Below are positions 18,643-31,110 of a stretch of DNA of 64,000 bases, in pieces. This DNA is from Escherichia coli (GTDB lineage: Bacteria; Pseudomonadota; Gammaproteobacteria; Enterobacterales; Enterobacteriaceae): assembly GCF_009931435.1 (NCBI RefSeq), contig NZ_CP043414.1, one strand, 5' to 3'. The notes below the pieces were generated by a model. The model saw only the letters and a program-made list of their open reading frames with translations, made no database searches and had not been told where the DNA came from. The position numbers and the translations under genes were made by a program. Positions within the stretch are counted from its first letter, which is position 1. Every line of letters begins with the position of its first letter.

Positions 18643-18846
18643 ATGTTTGGTAACTTAGGACAGGCAAAAAAATATCTCGGCCAGGCGGCGAAGATGTTGA
18701 TTGGCATTCCAGACTACGACAACTACGTCGAGCATATGAAGACCAACCATCCCGACAAGCCGTACATGAGCTATGAAGAATTCTTCCGCGAACGCCAGAA
18801 CGCGCGCTACGGCGGCGATGGTAAAGGCGGTATGCGCTGTTGTTAA
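18643..18846 (+). CDS. yjiX: Small protein YjiX (DUF466)
   Basis: 67-aa ORF directly downstream of the cstA-family gene, the conserved pairing. Confidence 0.8.
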
Positions 18847-18856
18847 TGGAGAGAGC

Positions 18857-19813
18857 ATGAACCCGATTGCAGTTACCCTACTCACCGGTTTTTTAGGCGC
18901 AGGCAAAACCACCCTGCTGCGCCATATTCTTAATGAACAGCACGGCTACAAGATTGCCGTGATTGAAAACGAATTCGGCGAAGTCTCCGTTGATGATCAA
19001 CTGATTGGCGACCGCGCCACGCAGATCAAAACGCTGACCAACGGCTGCATCTGTTGTTCGCGCTCCAACGAGCTGGAGGACGCGCTACTCGACCTGCTGG
19101 ATAATCTCGACAAGGGCAATATTCAGTTCGATCGTCTGGTCATTGAATGCACCGGCATGGCCGATCCCGGCCCGATTATTCAGACCTTTTTCTCCCATGA
19201 GATTTTATGCCAGCGTTACCTGCTGGACGGCGTGATTGCGCTGGTGGATGCGGTACATGCCGATGAGCAGATGAACCAGTTCACCATCGCCCAGTCACAG
19301 GTTGGCTACGCCGACCGCATTCTGCTGACCAAAACCGACGTCGCAGGCGAAGCAGAAAAACTGCGTGAACGCCTGGCACGCATCAACGCCCGCGCACCGG
19401 TCTACACCGTCACCCACGGCGACATCGATCTGGGCCTGCTGTTCAACACCAACGGTTTTATGCTGGAAGAAAACGTCGTCAGCACCAAACCGCGTTTCCA
19501 CTTTATCGCGGATAAACAAAACGATATTTCGTCGATTGTGGTAGAACTGGATTACCCGGTAGATATCAGCGAAGTTTCCCGCGTGATGGAAAACCTGCTG
19601 CTGGAGTCGGCGGATAAACTGCTGCGTTACAAAGGGATGCTATGGATTGACGGCGAACCAAATCGCCTGCTGTTCCAGGGCGTCCAGCGCCTCTACAGCG
19701 CCGACTGGGACCGCCCGTGGGGCGATGAAAAACCGCATAGCACGATGGTGTTTATCGGGATTCAGCTGCCGGAGGAAGAGATTCGGGCTGCGTTTGCGGG
19801 GTTGAGGAAGTAA
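18857..19813 (+). CDS. yjiA: CobW/P47K-family GTPase YjiA
   Basis: Start at MNPIAVTLLTGFLGAGKTTLL (P-loop); 318 aa; ORF-track start at 18773 overlaps yjiX and is rejected. Confidence 0.9.
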   Translation: MNPIAVTLLTGFLGAGKTTLLRHILNEQHGYKIAVIENEFGEVSVDDQLIGDRATQIKTLTNGCICCSRSNELEDALLDLLDNLDKGNIQFDRLVIECTGMADPGPIIQTFFSHEILCQRYLLDGVIALVDAVHADEQMNQFTIAQSQVGYADRILLTKTDVAGEAEKLRERLARINARAPVYTVTHGDIDLGLLFNTNGFMLEENVVSTKPRFHFIADKQNDISSIVVELDYPVDISEVSRVMENLLLESADKLLRYKGMLWIDGEPNRLLFQGVQRLYSADWDRPWGDEKPHSTMVFIGIQLPEEEIRAAFAGLRK

Positions 19814-19878: not shown

Positions 19879-20628
19879 TTATGAAACATCACGAAATACA
19901 CAGGTAAGTTCTTTAGGACTTGCTTTCCATATATGGTCAAAGCCACTCGACAGCATGACTTCTATTTTTCCTTCCGGACTTTCAATTAGTAAATAGCGAT
20001 CATGGCAGTTTGTATATTTGGGATTTGTAGTGATTTGCACACTCCATTCAGGATGGATACAATGAACAAAATTACTATTTATTTTACTTCCGTTTTGGAC
20101 TGCAGCGACACCTACTGCGATTTCTGAAAATTCAATAACAAGCTCTTTTCTAGGTAGTACGGAATGAAATAAGCTGCATGTATTCTCCCAATTCTGTGCA
20201 AAGTAATTATCGCATATAATTACTTTTTTTGCATTGCAACATAGCATTTCCAGATACTTTTTTAAATATATTCTATTATCTGTAGGGCTTAATGTAACGG
20301 TAACTTGATTATTAACCATACCTTTTTTATAATGTACAAAGGGAAGTGATAAATTATCATTCTCAGTAAGGATTATTTTCAACAACGATTTAGATGCTAA
20401 AGTAACAAGATCATCATCACTTTCAGGCTGACTTGCTAACATAGATAAATATTGTCGATATTCTAACTCCGGCATCTTCAATCCTAAATTTCTTGCCTCA
20501 ATCCATTGCCTTTTGTTAGTTAAATAAGGTAGTACTAGTTTTTTATGTAATCTCTTCACCTTATTCTTATCATCCATATTTTCATATGCAACTAATAAAG
20601 ATGTATCAAGAACCATTTGATAAGACAT
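19879..20628 (-). CDS. Hypothetical 249-aa protein, third gene of the DUF262-ATPase operon (candidate effector)
   Basis: ATG at 20628 lies 4 nt after the ATPase stop with GAGG RBS inside the upstream gene; AT-rich; no motif I can assign. Confidence 0.6.
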   Translation of the reverse strand: MSYQMVLDTSLLVAYENMDDKNKVKRLHKKLVLPYLTNKRQWIEARNLGLKMPELEYRQYLSMLASQPESDDDLVTLASKSLLKIILTENDNLSLPFVHYKKGMVNNQVTVTLSPTDNRIYLKKYLEMLCCNAKKVIICDNYFAQNWENTCSLFHSVLPRKELVIEFSEIAVGVAAVQNGSKINSNFVHCIHPEWSVQITTNPKYTNCHDRYLLIESPEGKIEVMLSSGFDHIWKASPKELTCVFRDVS

Positions 20629-20632
20629 TTCT

Positions 20633-21682
20633 TTACCTCATCTTCATCAAATCATCTAAGGTTGCATCAAAAAAACCTAAAGGGAATCCCGTAACATTCT
20701 CTTGCAGATCGGTAAATTTCCCACCTTCATTAACTCTCATCGAGATAAAATCTTTATCCACATCAGGTTTATAATGTACAGAAATATCCTCAGAAGTTAT
20801 AACATCTTCATAAACCAAATACGCAAGTTTATTGATTAAATGTTCACAATGCGTTTCTACAATAATCTGGATACCCTTACTTGCTACAAATGCTAAAAAA
20901 ATTGCCAAATGAGACTGCGCTTTCGGATGCAATTGAATTTCGGGATTTTCTAGCAAAATAAGATCGCCTTTTTTTGCCATCAAACAAATAATCAAAACCT
21001 TTGCAATATAACTCATCCCAGCCCCAAGATTAAGAGGAGAAACATTTCCTTCAAGCTCTTTTAAGGTAAAAGCGACCTTAATCTGGTCACCAACTTTTTC
21101 AGTAACTAATTCAGACGTCGTTCCTGTAATCAGTTTCAACCAATAAGATAATTGATATGCAAGTGTTGTAGATTCGTGAACTTTCACCAGATATTCAGGT
21201 ACTGGCAAATGTTTCATTTTATCAAATGTTGAAAACAAGAATTCTCCTGCAACACCTACTCGACGTTCTGCGGTGGGCACAAATTCTTGTGCCCCCAAGC
21301 GGTTGGCATTCAGATAGAGCAACTCAGGTTCACTACCAGGCACTCTTGGCTCGTATTGATATCCCAGACGACTATCAATTTCGATATTTTCTGAGTTGAG
21401 CGTTAACGAATGAGAATTTTTTTCTGTATCCTGGACTGTTATAACAATAGATTTTGCGTTATTTTTTTTATTTCTAATAACAGGAAAATCAGCTAGAAAT
21501 CGGATAACTTCTTCCATACTATACTGATTAACAGAAGCGCTATTTTTAATTAGTAACATCAATGCCTGAATAACGCTGGATTTACCAGAAGAGTTAGTTC
21601 CAGTTAAAATGGTCAGTGGTGATAACACCAGACTTGTTGAGCCTAAACTTTTAAATCCTTGAATGTTAATATTTGTAAGCAT
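20633..21682 (-). CDS. P-loop ATPase (ABC/AAA_21-like), second gene of the DUF262-ATPase operon
   Basis: Walker A GTNSSGKSS near N-terminus; Walker B-like DLILLENPEIQLHP; start overlaps upstream gene by 17 nt. Confidence 0.75.
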   Translation of the reverse strand: MLTNINIQGFKSLGSTSLVLSPLTILTGTNSSGKSSVIQALMLLIKNSASVNQYSMEEVIRFLADFPVIRNKKNNAKSIVITVQDTEKNSHSLTLNSENIEIDSRLGYQYEPRVPGSEPELLYLNANRLGAQEFVPTAERRVGVAGEFLFSTFDKMKHLPVPEYLVKVHESTTLAYQLSYWLKLITGTTSELVTEKVGDQIKVAFTLKELEGNVSPLNLGAGMSYIAKVLIICLMAKKGDLILLENPEIQLHPKAQSHLAIFLAFVASKGIQIIVETHCEHLINKLAYLVYEDVITSEDISVHYKPDVDKDFISMRVNEGGKFTDLQENVTGFPLGFFDATLDDLMKMR

Positions 21683-22796
21683 TTTTAATCCTTTCCATTA
21701 TTTCCTTCGCAAAATCAAAACGCATATTTACATATTGTGTTGTATCAATTGCACCAGAAAAAATACCAATCTCATCAAAATTATACTTGTATTGTTCAAT
21801 AAGCTGTTTTAATTCAATATTTTTTGATAAAAATTCAAAACTTATCTGACTGAATACCATAACTAACACTTCGAATAATCCCATATTCACTGGTCGCCTT
21901 TTAGCACCTGATTTTGTTGAAAATCTAAATGCTTCTGAACCCAACGCTTTATAGACATTAGTCATACCAGTTATACAAGCATCTTCAACTTCTTCCAGTA
22001 ACTCATCATCAGCTTTTGTATTAATGAATTTCATCGCAGATGCTAAAAAAGCATCAATATCAGACCTAAATTCAACACCTGGCATTTGATTTGTTACAAG
22101 CAAATAAAATCCTACGAACCGCAAAACCAGATATCTGTCTCGCATACGCTCAGATTTTACGCCATTACCTGTTGCAAGCCTGAAAGACTCGTGTTCAGCG
22201 AGATCCTTAATTAACTTTGTGGCCTTGCCTTGATAAAGAGCATGCCGCATTTCCTGTTTATTTAGATTAATACCACTTCGATTTACACGCTCAAAAATAT
22301 TAAATTTCACATATTCAGGTGTTGGGGGTTGAATCACATAAGAATGTAACTGGCAATCTTCAAGCTTTGCTTGTAATAATGGAGGAATATCAGAAAATTT
22401 TTTTCCTCTCAAGTCAGGCAACATAGATAAATCAGTTAAAGAAAATTCATTGTTAACATAGCGTTTCAATGCAGATATTCGTTGTTTGCCATCAATGATT
22501 TGCCTGACACCATTTTCATCCTCAAAAAGATAAATTAATGGAATAGGAATCCCCATTAAAATAGATTCAATTAATTCTGACTGGTGTTTTCTATCCCAGA
22601 CAAGTTTACGCTGAAAATCTGGAGCAAGAACCAGTTGCCCACGAGCTTCGCGACGGAGTAATTCGAAAACACTGGATTGCTCTTTTGCAATTCGAACCTC
22701 AGTATCTGTCCCCATTTGATGCGGATGAGATGTTAACTCAAGCTCTTCTTGATCTTCGAGTTCAATGCTGTCGTTTTCTACATCCGCATTACTCAT
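21666..22796 (-). CDS. DUF262 (ParB/Srx-like) domain protein, first gene of the three-gene operon
   Basis: DUF262 motifs in order: PDFQRKLVW, IIDGKQR (DGQQR-type), NIFERVNRSGINLNKQE; acidic N-terminus; ATG at 22796. Confidence 0.8.
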   Translation of the reverse strand: MSNADVENDSIELEDQEELELTSHPHQMGTDTEVRIAKEQSSVFELLRREARGQLVLAPDFQRKLVWDRKHQSELIESILMGIPIPLIYLFEDENGVRQIIDGKQRISALKRYVNNEFSLTDLSMLPDLRGKKFSDIPPLLQAKLEDCQLHSYVIQPPTPEYVKFNIFERVNRSGINLNKQEMRHALYQGKATKLIKDLAEHESFRLATGNGVKSERMRDRYLVLRFVGFYLLVTNQMPGVEFRSDIDAFLASAMKFINTKADDELLEEVEDACITGMTNVYKALGSEAFRFSTKSGAKRRPVNMGLFEVLVMVFSQISFEFLSKNIELKQLIEQYKYNFDEIGIFSGAIDTTQYVNMRFDFAKEIMERIKNAYKY

Positions 22797-25499: not shown

Positions 25500-27005
25500 A
25501 TGTTGCAGAAGGCCTTGTTTTTCATGGAATACAACATGTCTATCAGCTCAGTAATCAAATCATTACAAGATATTATGCGCAAAGATGCCGGTGTGGATGG
25601 CGATGCGCAGCGTCTCGGTCAGCTCTCCTGGCTGCTGTTTTTGAAAATCTTCGATGCCCAGGAAGAGGCGCTGGAACTGGAGCAGGATAACTATCAATAT
25701 CCGATCCCACAGCGTTATTTGTGGCGCAGTTGGGCCGCCAACGCGCAGGGCATTACCGGTGATTCCCTGCTGGAATTCGTTAATGATGATCTGTTCCCGG
25801 CGTTGAAAAACCTCACTGCGCCTATCGATAAAAACCCACGCGGCTACGTGGTGAAGCAGGCGTTCAGCGATGCCTATAACTATATGAAAAACGGTACGCT
25901 ACTGCGTCAGGTGATCAACAAGCTGAACGAAATTGACTTTACCAGCGCCAGCGAACGCCATCTGTTTGGTGATATTTACGAACAGATCCTTAAAGATCTG
26001 CAATCTGCGGGCAATGCTGGCGAATTCTATACTCCACGCGCCGTCACTCGCTTTATGGTGGATCGCGTTGATCCGAAACTCGGCGAATCCATTATGGACC
26101 CGGCCTGCGGTACGGGCGGTTTTCTTGCCTGCGCATTTGATCATGTAAAGAACAAATACGTGAAGAGCGTCGCCGATCATCAGACTCTGCAACAACAGAT
26201 CCACGGTGTCGAGAAAAAACAGCTTCCGCACCTGCTGGCGACCACCAATATGCTGCTGCACGGCATTGAAGTACCGGTACAAATTCGTCACGACAACACC
26301 CTGAATAAACCGCTTTCCTCCTGGGATGAGCAACTGGATGTGATTGTTACCAACCCGCCATTTGGTGGCACGGAAGAAGACGGTATTGAGAAGAACTTTC
26401 CGGCAGAGATGCAAACCCGCGAAACGGCGGATCTGTTCCTGCAACTGATTGTGGAAGTACTGGCGAAAAACGGTCGCGCGGCGGTGGTATTGCCGGATGG
26501 CACACTATTTGGCGAAGGCGTTAAAACCAAAATCAAAAAACTGCTTACCGAAGAGTGCAACCTGCATACCATCGTGCGTTTACCGAATGGGGTGTTTAAC
26601 CCCTATACCGGCATTAAAACCAACCTGTTGTTCTTTACCAAAGGTCAGCCAACCAAAGAGATTTGGTTCTATGAGCATCCGTATCCGGCGGGCGTGAAAA
26701 ATTACAGTAAAACCAAGCCGATGAAGTTTGAAGAGTTTCAGGCGGAGATCGACTGGTGGGGGAACGAGGCCGATGGTTTTGCCAGCCGCGTCGAGAATGA
26801 GCAGGCGTGGAAAGTCAGCATTGATGACGTGATTGCGCGTAACTTCAATCTGGATATTAAAAACCCACATCAGGCGGAAACCGTTAGCCATGATCCGGAC
26901 GAGCTGTTAGCGCAGTATGCAAAGCAGCAGGCGGAGATCCAGACGCTGCGTAATCAACTGCGCGATATTCTTGGCGCTGCGCTGTCTGGCAAGGAGGTTA
27001 ACTGA
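25500..27005 (+). CDS. hsdM: Type I restriction-modification N6-adenine methyltransferase subunit (HsdM)
   Basis: AdoMet motif DPACGTGGFL and catalytic NPPFGG; alternative starts at 25524 or 25536; stop overlaps hsdS start by 1 nt. Confidence 0.9.
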   Translation: MLQKALFFMEYNMSISSVIKSLQDIMRKDAGVDGDAQRLGQLSWLLFLKIFDAQEEALELEQDNYQYPIPQRYLWRSWAANAQGITGDSLLEFVNDDLFPALKNLTAPIDKNPRGYVVKQAFSDAYNYMKNGTLLRQVINKLNEIDFTSASERHLFGDIYEQILKDLQSAGNAGEFYTPRAVTRFMVDRVDPKLGESIMDPACGTGGFLACAFDHVKNKYVKSVADHQTLQQQIHGVEKKQLPHLLATTNMLLHGIEVPVQIRHDNTLNKPLSSWDEQLDVIVTNPPFGGTEEDGIEKNFPAEMQTRETADLFLQLIVEVLAKNGRAAVVLPDGTLFGEGVKTKIKKLLTEECNLHTIVRLPNGVFNPYTGIKTNLLFFTKGQPTKEIWFYEHPYPAGVKNYSKTKPMKFEEFQAEIDWWGNEADGFASRVENEQAWKVSIDDVIARNFNLDIKNPHQAETVSHDPDELLAQYAKQQAEIQTLRNQLRDILGAALSGKEVN

Positions 27006-28753
27006 TGAGTGTGGAAAAGCTGATCGTTGATCATATGGAAACCTGGACCTCGGCGTTGCAAACCCGTTCCACCGCCGGGCGCGGCAGTTCCGGAAAAATT
27101 GATTTATATGGCATTAAGAAATTACGTGAGCTGATTCTGGAACTGGCTGTGCGCGGTAAACTGGTGCCGCAGGATCCGAATGATGAACCGGCGTCGGAGC
27201 TGCTGAAGCGTAATGAAGAACGGAAAAAAGAATTAGCGCGCAATAATGGTATGAAAACCACAGCAAGCACTAATATCCATGGAAATGAATATTATATCGA
27301 TACCCCCGAAAAGTGGTCATGGATAAGACTTGGTAATTTAGCTAAATTCATCGATTACCGAGGGAAAACACCACATAAAAAAGAAAATGGTATAAGGCTT
27401 ATAACAGCAAAAAATATCAGAAAGGGCTGTATTGATCTCAATCCAGAAGAATTCATATCTGAAGAAGATTACATATCATGGATGACAAGAGGCTTTCCTA
27501 AATGTGGTGATATTTTATTCACAACTGAAGCACCACTGGGGAATGCAGCGATTATTGATTTAGACGGAAAGTTCGCTCTTGCTCAACGTTCTATCTGTTT
27601 TCAATGGCATACTCCAGAGATAAGCCCTTTTATGCTTATTCAAATCCTGGCGATCCCCTTCCAGTCACAACTAAGTGACAAATCTACAGGCATGACCGCA
27701 ACAGGAATAAAAGCGTCTAAGTTAAAAGAGATCCCTGTTATTTTACCACCTTACCAAGAACAAATACGTATTGTATCCAAAGTACAGGAGTTCATGTCCC
27801 TATGTGACCAACTGGAACAGCAATCCCTGACCACTCTGGACGCACATCAGCAACTGGTTGAAACCCTGTTGGGAACGCTTACAGACAGCCAAAACGCCGA
27901 GGAACTGGCTGAAAACTGGGCGCGTATTAGCGAGCATTTCGACACCCTATTTACCACCGAAGCCAGCGTGGATGCGTTAAAACAGACCATTCTGCAACTG
28001 GCCGTAATGGGCAAACTTGTGCCGCATGATCCGAATGACGAACCAGCCTCTGAACTGCTCAAACGAATTGCGCAGGAAAAAGCTCAACTGGTGAAAGAAG
28101 GAAAAATAAAAAAACAAAAACCGTTGCCGCCGATTAGCGATGAGGAAAAACCTTTTGAACTGCCGGAAGGGTGGGAATGGATTAGACTAGGAAATATTGG
28201 TGAAGTTAAAGGGGGCGGAACCCCAAGTAAAAACAATCCTGATTTTTGGAAAGGTAATATTCCATGGGTTTCACCAAAGGATATGAAGGTTAATTACATC
28301 TCCAAAAGTCAACTAAATATTTCAAAAGAGGCTGTATTGGAGAGTTCAGTACATCTAATTCCTGAAAATAGTCTTATTTTTGTTGTCCGAGGCATGATTT
28401 TAGCCCATACATTCCCCGTAGCAATAACAAAAAAAGAAGTCACTATTAATCAAGATATGAAAGCCATATCAACTAATCAATTAAATACTGATTTTTTAAT
28501 TTACTTACTTAAAGCAAACGAGACTCGAGTAATATGCTTAGTTGACCGCTCCTCTCATGGCACATGTAAACTTGTTTCAGATAAACTTTTCAATTTGGTT
28601 TTACCGTTGCCTCCATTAGAAGAACAATTTCGTATTACAGAACGAATAAATATGCTATTAGCTTATTGTGATAGATTGAAAAATTATATAAATCTAAAAA
28701 AACAAACCCAACTGCACCTTGCAGATGCACTCACTGACGCGGCGATAAACTAA
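27005..28753 (+). CDS. hsdS: Type I restriction-modification specificity subunit (HsdS) with two target-recognition domains
   Basis: 582 aa; duplicated conserved segment LAVRGKLVPQDPNDEPASELLKR / LAVMGKLVPHDPNDEPASELLKR flanking AT-rich variable TRDs. Confidence 0.88.
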   Translation: MSVEKLIVDHMETWTSALQTRSTAGRGSSGKIDLYGIKKLRELILELAVRGKLVPQDPNDEPASELLKRNEERKKELARNNGMKTTASTNIHGNEYYIDTPEKWSWIRLGNLAKFIDYRGKTPHKKENGIRLITAKNIRKGCIDLNPEEFISEEDYISWMTRGFPKCGDILFTTEAPLGNAAIIDLDGKFALAQRSICFQWHTPEISPFMLIQILAIPFQSQLSDKSTGMTATGIKASKLKEIPVILPPYQEQIRIVSKVQEFMSLCDQLEQQSLTTLDAHQQLVETLLGTLTDSQNAEELAENWARISEHFDTLFTTEASVDALKQTILQLAVMGKLVPHDPNDEPASELLKRIAQEKAQLVKEGKIKKQKPLPPISDEEKPFELPEGWEWIRLGNIGEVKGGGTPSKNNPDFWKGNIPWVSPKDMKVNYISKSQLNISKEAVLESSVHLIPENSLIFVVRGMILAHTFPVAITKKEVTINQDMKAISTNQLNTDFLIYLLKANETRVICLVDRSSHGTCKLVSDKLFNLVLPLPPLEEQFRITERINMLLAYCDRLKNYINLKKQTQLHLADALTDAAIN

Positions 28754-28777
28754 TTTTCTCGCCCTCATAAAACCAAT

Positions 28778-28803
28778 AAAGCGGCTAAATAGCCGCTTTA
28801 TTC
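28778..28803 (+). terminator. Rho-independent terminator after hsdS
   Basis: aaagcggct-aaat-agccgcttt hairpin followed by AT-rich tract. Confidence 0.5.
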
Positions 28804-28878
28804 ACATCACCAAAAATTATATTTTACGCTAATTTTCATCTTATTTTCATTAATTTTTAGCTGGACTTTCCCCATATT

Positions 28879-28898
28879 TACTGATGATATGTCCAGGT
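28879..28898. promoter_or_regulatory. Candidate LexA operator (SOS box) upstream of symE
   Basis: tactgatgatatgtccaggt contains CTG-N10-CAG spacing about 75 nt upstream of the symE ATG. Confidence 0.45.
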
Positions 28899-28899
28899 A

Positions 28900-28980
28900 T
28901 TTAGCGCGGTGCGAATGTGCGCCAACACACCCGCACCGCTCATCACAATCCCTATTTCACGAGAATAGTAATCATGACTG
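28900..28980 (-). ncRNA. symR: Putative SymR antisense sRNA (antitoxin of SymE), approximate coordinates
   Basis: Inferred from established symE/SymR arrangement (cis-antisense RNA over the symE 5' UTR and start codon); ends not determinable by eye. Confidence 0.3.
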
Positions 28981-29315
28981 ACACGCATTCTATTGCACAA
29001 CCGTTCGAAGCAGAAGTCTCCCCGGCAAATAACCGTCAATTAACCGTGAGTTATGCGAGCCGCTACCCGGATTACAGCCGTATTCCCGCCATCACTCTGA
29101 AAGGTCAGTGGCTGGAAACCGCCGGTTTTACCACCGGCACGGCGGTAGATGTCAAAGTGATGGAAGGCTGTATTGTCCTCACCGCCCAACCACCCGCCGC
29201 CGAGGAGAGCGAACTGATGCAGTCACTGCGCCAGGTGTGCAAACTGTCAGCGCGTAAACAGAAGCAGGTGCAGGAGTTTATTGGGGTGATTGCCGGTAAA
29301 CAGAAAGTCGCCTGA
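28974..29315 (+). CDS. symE: SOS-induced type I toxin SymE
   Basis: Translation from ATG 28974 ([34 protein letters not shown]..., 113 aa) matches SymE; ORF-track start 28917 rejected. Confidence 0.9.
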
Positions 29316-29323
29316 TACATTGA

Positions 29324-29347
29324 CCCGGTAGCGCCAGTGCTACCGGG
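29324..29347. terminator. Hairpin cccggtagc-gccagt-gctaccggg between convergent symE and the GmrSD-like gene
   Basis: 9-bp GC-rich stem followed by tattatt. Confidence 0.45.
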
Positions 29348-29361
29348 TATTATTCGCCACG

Positions 29362-31110
29362 TTATACCAACGCGCTCTCCATCTGTTTTTCAAATGCCTG
29401 ACGGATTAATCCCATAATGTAAGGAAGTTGTGCGAGGTCGCTGAAACCAATTTCTACATCGCCATTGCCCCAGCGCCCAACATTTGTCACATCTTTGGCA
29501 ATACCTTTCGGATCGACCAGTTCATGAAACTGCATATTAAGCGACAATCGCAGTCGGCTTTTTTGCGGCACAACATCAACAAAATTCGTTTCCGCTTTAA
29601 ACGCAATATAGAGCTTCAATACTTCCTGCGTGATCCCTGCGTCCAGGCGCAAAACTTCATCGCTAAGATGATCGAATAACACCCGGCTATGCGAACCATC
29701 AGCAAGAAAAGGATAATCACTCAGGCTGTAACTGGTTTTGTTTTCCGGCTGCCCCCGATAAACAGCTAAAACCTCTTCAGGAAGAGAAGGCGCTTGCCAG
29801 ACCTGAACCGCGAGATCGGCCAGACGATCGGCTCGGGCGTGAATGGCAGCTTCATCCCATTTTTCGCACTGTCCAAGACCGATATTCAAATAAAGCGGGC
29901 TATGCTTAAAGCCGTCTTCAATATCGCGTTTTTCCGCGAAAGGTCTGTCACTGTAGCGGGAGTTATAGCGCGTTAAAGTGAGATTCCCCAACGTATGCAA
30001 CAATTCTTTATGAATACGCTGCCAGTCGCTTCCCAGCTCTTCGCGCCATTTAGCCGACAAATTTTCGTTCTGCGGCATAATGTGCTCAATCGTAAACTCT
30101 TCCACGCGCTCTCTGCGTTTATTGTTTTCCAGTCGTCGTAACCAGTAACTGCGACTGCGGAAGTTATAGAGATCGCGAACTTTTAATTCCCGTTTAAATT
30201 CATCATCGTTGGGGAAACGACGATATGAAGGTAGATTCAGAAAATGTACCTGAATACTTTCCAGATAATTTTCTTTATTAATAACTTTATAAAAAGTGGC
30301 AAACGTCTTGTTAAGAGAATTTGTTGGAATCGCACATACTGCACGGCGGAAAACATAAGATTCAATTAAACGAATTATGCTCAGGAAATCTTCACGAGAC
30401 AAAACGCCATTTTTATAGTCATGATAAAGCGCCAGTAAGAAAGGATACGCCACATCGACTTTTAACTCGCGCAAATCCTGAAAAGCCGTAGCAAGCGATT
30501 TGTCACTTTCTTTTCCCAATGCCATTGCACAGTAATACTCCGCGTAGATGTGAATATCTTCAACCAGCCGATCTACGCCTTTTTCAGCAACACTCTGGCT
30601 ACGGGCATGGAGTTTAAAAGCCTCATAGACTTCATCTGTCCGAGGGATCTCCCCCGTTTTTACCGTCAGATAATGACGCATAAAACTGTCAAAATATTCG
30701 CTGTAACCTTGCTGACCAAAGGCGACTTCCATGGGTCGCCAGTGATCTTCATACAACCGGGTTTGATGCTCTGGTTCGAGACCCATCAGAATAAAATTGC
30801 GCACCAGATCGGCCTGACTTAACGCCTTACCGGTGGAGTTCATACTTTCAAAAATCAGTTGCGGATTATCCTGACCACGATTAAGCGCCACATCGACAAT
30901 TAATAACTTTGCTAACCCACGACATAAGGGGATCAAGTCATCACCGAGTTTGGCAATTTGTTCATCAAAGAAAGTAAAGTTTTCCATTATTCGATGGGAA
31001 TAGTTTTCTGGCATTGGTCTTTGTTTTATTAACGCCAGCAAACTGTCTTTATCAGTCTCGGTAAGCAGTAATTTAAATCCTTTCTCGCCGGACTCATAAG
31101 GATTGAGCAA
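29362..31110 (-). CDS. GmrSD-family-like protein (DUF262 C-terminal portion plus DUF1524/HNH), probably 5'-truncated; candidate type IV restriction remnant
   Basis: C-terminal region has EHIMPQNENLSAKWREELG (DUF1524 His-Me type); N-terminal region has only the distal DUF262 motif (IFESMNSTGKALSQADLVRNF); first in-frame codon is TTG with a stop 8 codons upstream. Confidence 0.6.
   Translation of the reverse strand: MLNPYESGEKGFKLLLTETDKDSLLALIKQRPMPENYSHRIMENFTFFDEQIAKLGDDLIPLCRGLAKLLIVDVALNRGQDNPQLIFESMNSTGKALSQADLVRNFILMGLEPEHQTRLYEDHWRPMEVAFGQQGYSEYFDSFMRHYLTVKTGEIPRTDEVYEAFKLHARSQSVAEKGVDRLVEDIHIYAEYYCAMALGKESDKSLATAFQDLRELKVDVAYPFLLALYHDYKNGVLSREDFLSIIRLIESYVFRRAVCAIPTNSLNKTFATFYKVINKENYLESIQVHFLNLPSYRRFPNDDEFKRELKVRDLYNFRSRSYWLRRLENNKRRERVEEFTIEHIMPQNENLSAKWREELGSDWQRIHKELLHTLGNLTLTRYNSRYSDRPFAEKRDIEDGFKHSPLYLNIGLGQCEKWDEAAIHARADRLADLAVQVWQAPSLPEEVLAVYRGQPENKTSYSLSDYPFLADGSHSRVLFDHLSDEVLRLDAGITQEVLKLYIAFKAETNFVDVVPQKSRLRLSLNMQFHELVDPKGIAKDVTNVGRWGNGDVEIGFSDLAQLPYIMGLIRQAFEKQMESALV

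Follow-up and report, generated by a model that had tools for sequence, protein, structure and literature searches.

The closest described relative of the locus analysed here is the symE/symR pair of Escherichia coli K-12, described in 2007 by Kawano, Aravind and Storz, in which symE (yjiW) is overlapped by the gene for an antisense RNA, symR (RyjC). In K-12, overexpressed SymE is toxic and its repression by SymR is established (PMC1891008). The association of symE with a restriction island was also noted in that study (Kawano 2007, PMC1891008), and a 2025 review lists the pair with the toxin-antitoxin systems that reside in the enteric immigration control region (PMC12707154).

Other systems share parts of this design. 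In tisB/istR-1, as in symE/symR, LexA represses a toxin gene and a small RNA restrains its translation. TisB is a membrane peptide of 29 aa and IstR-1 is encoded divergently, with a short pairing region, whereas SymE is a soluble 113-aa AbrB-fold protein and SymR is fully complementary to its target. In hok/sok of plasmid R1, toxin translation is likewise repressed by a cis-encoded antisense RNA; that RNA, Sok, is unstable, and the toxin Hok, a membrane peptide, serves post-segregational killing. SymR is reportedly stable and present in excess, and we know of no addiction phenotype for symE. The tisB operator also differs from that of symE in being near consensus, with a heterology index (HI) of 1.8 (PMC11228462). 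Finally, the core of SymE and the swapped-hairpin DNA-binding domain of MazE are homologous (PMC1891008, PMC11894785), yet MazE is a protein antitoxin partnered with the toxin MazF, whereas SymE acts without a protein partner and inhibits growth itself.

Set beside these systems, the block that we analysed in a 64,000-nt stretch of E. coli DNA (the window, to which unlabelled coordinates refer) is very probably an allele, some 5% diverged from that of K-12, of the chromosomal symE/symR module in the Escherichia immigration control region. The two loci have the same gene order and the same overlap, a 77-nt SymR whose 5' end lies 3 nt past the symE ATG, a LexA box at -95, an identical symR promoter region and SymE proteins that are 95% identical, and in both chromosomes the module lies between yjiA and yjiR. 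Against these likenesses stand 6 amino-acid changes in SymE, 8 substitutions in SymR, a Shine-Dalgarno sequence that reads CGAGAA in the window and GGAGAA in K-12, and a LexA box with two substitutions (HI ~11.8 versus 7.9). The flanks differ as well: hsdRMS is of type IB (EcoAI family) in the window and of type IA in K-12, and a truncated GmrSD-like gene takes the place of mcrBC. The module as such has been known since 2007, and the window holds a textbook case of it in the usual restriction-gene island; the sole strain-specific point is its weaker operator allele.

The symE coding sequence (28974..29315, plus strand) runs from the ATG at 28974 through 113 codons to a TGA at 29313..29315. Its product matches Pfam PF08845 SymE_toxin with 75.1 bits (cut-off 29; profile positions 1-54 of 54) and the NCBIfam equivalog NF010128, 'endoribonuclease SymE', with 229.1 bits (cut-off 132; positions 1-112 of 113), and is identical to K-12 SymE at 107/113 residues (95%). 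Against six homologs dN/dS is 0.06-0.30, and symE is thus under purifying selection. A preliminary description of this DNA, made from its letters, had called symE intact, with 113 aa from this ATG, and the complete frame, the passed Pfam and NCBIfam cut-offs and the identity to K-12 uphold it. Synonymous divergence of the window gene (28974..29312) from the K-12 allele (L001) is dS = 0.14, which looks high within one species and would fit an old polymorphism in a hypervariable island. For the whole 608-bp region (28754..29361), the best E. coli match reaches just 96.5%.

On the opposite strand, Rfam RF01809 matches at 28903..28979 with 88.9 bits against a gathering score of 61, and it is the only Rfam family above its gathering score in the 64-kb window. 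The match is full-length (model positions 1-77 of 77) and predicts a 77-nt antisense RNA. SymR has full complementarity to symE from the 5' UTR through the Shine-Dalgarno region to the sixth nt of the coding sequence, its 5' end lying 3 nt beyond the ATG (28974..28976), just as the earlier expectation of an antisense RNA opposite the 5' UTR and start codon would have it. The symE Shine-Dalgarno region (GAGAA, 28961..28965, plus strand) faces the loop and the 3' arm of SymR hairpin 1; across 45 aligned loci this position reads [GA]GGAATAG or GAGAATAG. RefSeq does not annotate symR in the E. coli records that we compared.

Like K-12 SymR, the window SymR folds into two hairpins (-37.6 kcal/mol, z = -5.06), and our own covariance model, built from 15 sequences, gives the window SymR 92.9 bits and finds SymR at the same place, antisense over the symE start, in 46/48 sequences searched. 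Among the 46 homologs, 92.5% of cells are paired, 11 pairs have changed on both sides, and 8/14 pairs of hairpin 2 are compensatory; the covariation score, obtained on an alignment that was fitted to the model, was reached by 0/500 shuffles, and slid-register controls fell far lower. Several of these pairs are mainly G-U in the SymR sense and would turn into C-A mismatches in the mRNA; this asymmetry suggests that selection acts on the antisense strand.

Three further Rfam candidates fell far short of their gathering scores: IS128 (26 bits, threshold 80), sraL (22 bits, threshold 39) and the L20 leader (22 bits, threshold 59). We rejected them as chance matches driven by the hsdS terminator hairpin and the SymR hairpin. 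At the top of SymR hairpin 2, E. coli ST131 (L004, 5063..5096) and loci L031 and L045 have the usual sequence in exact reverse complement (GTGCGCCAACAC versus GTGTTGGCGCAC), an inversion that leaves the stem intact and accounts, in L004, for a partial plus-strand match of the covariance model. SymR was not detected, even with the covariance-model filters off, in the two most diverged symE homologs, those of Franconibacter helveticus (L040) and 'Enterobacter' pulveris (L042). Both carry near-consensus LexA boxes (L040 5860..5879, HI 5.4; L042 5881..5900, HI 3.05), and control of symE there may rest on LexA alone.

The predicted symR promoter lies inside symE itself. Its -10, TAGAAT (28987..28992, minus strand), falls within symE codons 5-7 and precedes the SymR 5' end by 7 nt. 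It is part of the first 65 nt of symE, which are identical to K-12; in K-12, a two-base change in this -10 abolished SymR (PMC1891008). At the -35 distance (16-18 nt spacer) lies the block ACTTCTG (29010..29016, minus strand), a poor match to TTGACA that conservation singles out: in 46 loci its complement CAGAAGT is nearly invariant, the synonymous positions of codons 13-14 included, and third-codon positions under the -10 and this block are 98-100% conserved versus 40-80% nearby. We accordingly treat ACTTCTG as the putative symR -35. For symE, the candidate -35 is TGGACT (28862..28867, plus strand). Across 45 aligned upstream regions it belongs to CTGGACTT, a block that hardly varies and that precedes the LexA box by 11 nt. 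A spacer of 17-18 nt would place the symE -10 within the LexA box, and symE transcription would then start just downstream of the box, around 28897..28903 and near the SymR 3' end.

A consensus sigma-70 and terminator scan of 28700..29420 called just the hairpin after hsdS and unrelated weak sites, leaving uncalled the symE promoter, the symR promoter and the hairpin after symE. The symR promoter was missed because its -35 is poor, and we have therefore placed both promoters by conservation. The hsdS hairpin, AATAAAGCGGCT-AAAT-AGCCGCTTTATT (28775..28802, plus strand; -16.6 kcal/mol), is a terminator-like site that marks the upstream boundary and lies outside the module proper. At the other end, a 10-bp GC-rich hairpin followed by TATTATT on the plus strand (29323..29348; -20.2 kcal/mol on the plus and -19.6 on the minus strand) stands between the convergent symE and GmrSD-like genes and is probably their shared terminator.

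Transcriptional control of symE would depend on the LexA (SOS) box TACTGATGATATGTCCAGGT (28879..28898), whose CTG-N10-CAG core, CTGATGATATGTCCAG, has an AT-rich spacer and occupies 28881..28896. The box lies 5 nt past the 3' end of SymR and, as in K-12, 95 nt upstream of the ATG; it aligns base for base with the K-12 yjiW/symE box TACTGATGATATATACAGGT, with 18/20 bases identical. The K-12 box is given as experimentally known in Kawano 2007 (PMC1891008), which cites Fernandez De Henestrosa 2000 for it. Both substitutions fall in the better half-site, turning the minus-strand ACCTGTATAT of K-12 into ACCTGGACAT in the window. The preliminary description had pointed to a LexA-like site at exactly these coordinates, and the site is the ortholog of the K-12 box. 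To score it we built an HI matrix from 18 published E. coli LexA boxes (PMC3009722 Table 4), symE not being among them; the matrix is a rebuilt one, distinct from the original of Lewis 1994, and its HI values are approximate. It returns 7.94 for the K-12 symE box on the better strand, against a published 7.9 (Courcelle 2001, as listed in PMC11228462). On this approximate scale the window box has an HI of 11.82 and ranks first of 63,981 positions in the window.

A rank of this kind invites the objection that the CTG-N10-CAG is a chance match without regulatory role, conserved only through promoter elements or the nearby symR 3' end. The bare pattern is indeed uninformative: the window holds 28 matches against 12.9 +/- 4.1 expected, a count that CTG/CAG-rich coding sequence probably inflates, and sites with HI <= 11.8 are expected about once per 64 kb, simulated 64-kb sequences having ~1 site this good and 60% of simulations at least one. 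The window's top-ranked site, however, falls in the one 220-nt region where a symE operator is expected, and only 0.6% of simulated 220-nt upstream regions contain a site this good; it is also orthologous to the reported K-12 LexA site (PMC1891008), and diverged species change its internal sequence while keeping CTG-N10-CAG and a LexA-like score. We therefore find a chance origin barely credible.

The comparison with other species covered 41 symE loci from Escherichia, Pseudocitrobacter, Citrobacter, Salmonella, Kosakonia, Raoultella, Pantoea, Enterobacter, Chimaeribacter and others. In 39/41 of them, the best LexA-like site within 200 nt upstream of symE lies at -87..-100. At this conserved site the median HI is 10.3, and 28/41 loci have an HI <= 12, versus 14 of 2,229 background 200-nt tiles (0.6%). 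The spacer varies between lineages while CTG-N10-CAG is kept, as in TACTGGTTAGATTTACAGGT (HI 6.6) and AACTGTATATAATCACAGTA (HI 3.1). It is because of K-12 orthology and this cross-species conservation, and not of the pattern count, that we take the operator as real; we conclude that the box is, by these comparisons, a genuine and conserved operator of which the window strain appears to carry a weak allele.

All the E. coli alleles of the box that we compared keep the 95-nt distance to the ATG, and they form a natural series with the window strain at the weak end: HI is 7.94 in K-12, 9.43 in O157, ST131 and ETEC1716, 9.94 in ABW_A19, and 11.82 in the window and NGF1. The O157 and ST131 operator reads ...ATATCCAGGT and the window operator ...ATGTCCAGGT. 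The exact 45-nt window allele is found in 47/5,426 complete E. coli genomes. With this series one could probe the weight of SOS control at a gene whose silencing also draws on an antisense RNA and a protease.

By matrix score the box is the best of 63,981 positions, but its HI of 11.82, besides arising about once per 64 kb by chance, is near the limit of 12.6, LexA binding having been reported for sites with an HI of 12.6 or lower (PMC3374874). That closeness to the limit makes 'candidate', the word used in the preliminary description, the right one. Judged by its bases, the window operator is clearly weaker than the K-12 allele, and we infer LexA binding to it. How weak it has become bears on a second alternative, in which the module is symE/symR as we describe it but its operator has decayed below functional affinity, so that symE would be a low-constitutive gene silenced by SymR and Lon only and no longer an SOS gene in this lineage. 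The rise in HI from 7.94 in K-12 through 9.4-9.9 in O157, ST131 and ABW_A19 to 11.82 in the window speaks for such decay, as does the fact that positions 6 and 8 now deviate in both half-sites. The weakest accepted boxes (polB, dinG, dinB, ftsK) score 11.4-12.8 in leave-one-out, a site elsewhere with an HI of 11.6 was unresponsive to SOS induction (PMC3374874), and the module holds no second LexA-like site with an HI below 13.

Both triplets, CTG and CAG, are nonetheless intact and correctly spaced, and the deviating bases have precedents in accepted boxes, the position-6 G in ruvA, cho and dinG and the position-8 C in sulA. The score also stays below 12.6, 47 complete genomes carry this allele, which is found in at least two different island contexts, and comparable scores occur at the same site in many other species, with the median of 10.3 given above. 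Loss of LexA control thus seems to us unlikely, though it deserves to be kept in mind, and we favour a weak but working operator. The K-12 gene, for its part, is induced 1.5-fold after AZT, modestly yet in a LexA-dependent manner (PMC11228462).

With a weak but working operator, regulation in the window strain would follow the K-12 scheme, by orthology with the system of Kawano 2007 (PMC1891008). LexA on its operator would keep the symE promoter off until DNA damage led, through RecA-stimulated LexA cleavage, to symE transcription. SymR, expressed constitutively, would pair with the leader of the symE mRNA, blocking translation and lowering the mRNA, and Lon would degrade the SymE that is made. 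SymE would then accumulate only after strong or prolonged damage and inhibit growth, either through RNA decay, as proposed in 2007, or by coating and condensing DNA, as the 2022 work would have it. The two substitutions in the good half-site lead us to predict weaker LexA repression in the window strain than in K-12, which would shift more of the silencing burden onto SymR and Lon.

What SymE does once made is disputed. The 2007 proposal was that it promotes RNA decay (PMC1891008); Thompson et al. 2022, in the summary given by PMC11894785, saw no endoribonuclease activity and reported that SymE binds DNA non-specifically and condenses the nucleoid. The phrase 'RNA-cleaving toxin' in the preliminary description accordingly agrees with the 2007 proposal and conflicts with the 2022 work in that summary. 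The later findings open the possibility that symE/symR is functionally no toxin-antitoxin system at all, SymE being a damage-induced, nucleoid-associated DNA-binding protein that is toxic only when artificially overexpressed, and SymR its tight translational regulator. Besides the lack of endoribonuclease activity, the non-specific DNA binding and the nucleoid compaction reported in 2022 (Thompson et al., via PMC11894785), this view has in its favour that Kawano 2007 (PMC1891008) saw no growth defect at chromosomally induced SymE levels and that SymE has a MazE/AbrB-type DNA-binding domain (Pfam description, PMC1891008). Toxicity on overexpression and repression by SymR are, however, experimentally established in K-12 (PMC1891008), Pfam, Rfam and NCBIfam still name the pair toxin and antitoxin, and the sequence holds nothing that distinguishes the two views. 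We consider the non-toxin role a serious possibility, a little on the doubtful side of even.

Across many Enterobacterales the operator, the antisense RNA and the internal promoter are conserved together while the neighbouring restriction genes vary. In megablast, matches to K-12-like genomes cover positions 90-558 of the query 28754..29361, and the alignment break points delimit a conserved block of ~470 bp (28843..29311, plus strand) that contains the symE promoter, LexA box, symR and symE; homology to K-12 is confined to about this block, which is flanked on both sides by DNA unrelated to K-12. Upstream in the window, the hsdS ORF (27005..28753; Pfam Methylase_S, type I specificity subunit) ends 220 nt before symE and is itself preceded by genes for HsdM (N6_Mtase) and HsdR, the latter assigned by NCBIfam to the EcoAI/FtnUII family, that is, type IB.

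In K-12, symE follows a type IA hsdS and precedes mcrBC; in the window, O157 and ABW_A19 it follows a type IB hsdS and precedes a GmrSD-like gene; and in NGF1 and ST131 it follows the hsdR of a system ordered M-S-R and precedes yjiS. By tblastn, a type I gene or an hsdS remnant lies immediately upstream in ~17/40 other-species loci with usable upstream sequence. The claim that placement after hsdS reflects a conserved coupling to the restriction locus therefore stands for the window, with hsdS 220 nt upstream in a restriction island, and has to be relaxed beyond it, given the hsdR neighbour in NGF1 and ST131 and the ~17/40 loci elsewhere. In these sequences, linkage of symE to restriction genes is common, not universal, and 'after hsdS' is one of several arrangements.

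The linkage of symE to three unrelated type I families, and the fact that some Pantoea keep just a 3' hsdS remnant beside symE, lead us to raise one further idea, although we think it improbable: the symE/symR block may work in partnership with the restriction systems beside it and be more than their neighbour, with SymE acting, for example, as a damage-triggered, nucleoid-condensing brake that limits self-restriction damage when a flanking cassette is swapped or lost. If SymE were such a brake, the LexA-box series within E. coli (HI 7.9, 9.4, 11.8) would tune the threshold of its trigger. The sharp homology break points on both sides of the ~470-bp block mean that it could also serve as a recombination anchor for cassette exchange.

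Several neighbouring features merit separate mention. At three Pantoea loci (L016, L017 and L025), a 40-81 aa 3' remnant of a type IA hsdS, 80-90% identical to K-12, lies ~270-510 nt upstream of symE, and no intact hsd genes were detected at these loci, which suggests that symE was inherited along with the 3' end of hsdS. In ETEC1716 (L006, 5132..5200), a deletion joins symE to mdtM and cuts symE after ~23 codons, with the LexA box and symR kept.

The GmrSD-like gene downstream of symE in the window (29362..31110, minus strand) looks 5'-truncated, ~370 bp present in O157:H7 (L005, 7357..7726) being absent. The loss amounts to ~113 N-terminal codons, the DUF262 DGQQR motif included, and the remaining ORF starts with TTG; Pfam GmrSD_N matches it over profile positions 102-198 only, just below the cut-off. 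The O157 copy of this gene is split into two ORFs.

Two loci, L009 and L012, titled 'MAG: Bacillota bacterium', carry an Escherichia-type restriction island, and HsdR and HsdM of L012 have 100% amino-acid identity to those of the window; both are almost certainly mis-binned enterobacterial DNA. On the far side of the window's restriction genes, between yjiA (CobW family, 18773..19813) and hsdR, lie three co-oriented genes (19879..22796, minus strand) that encode a DUF262/GmrSD_N protein (376 aa), an AAA_15/AAA_21 ATPase (349 aa) and a 249-aa protein without a Pfam match, a candidate defence operon at the place where K-12 has mrr.
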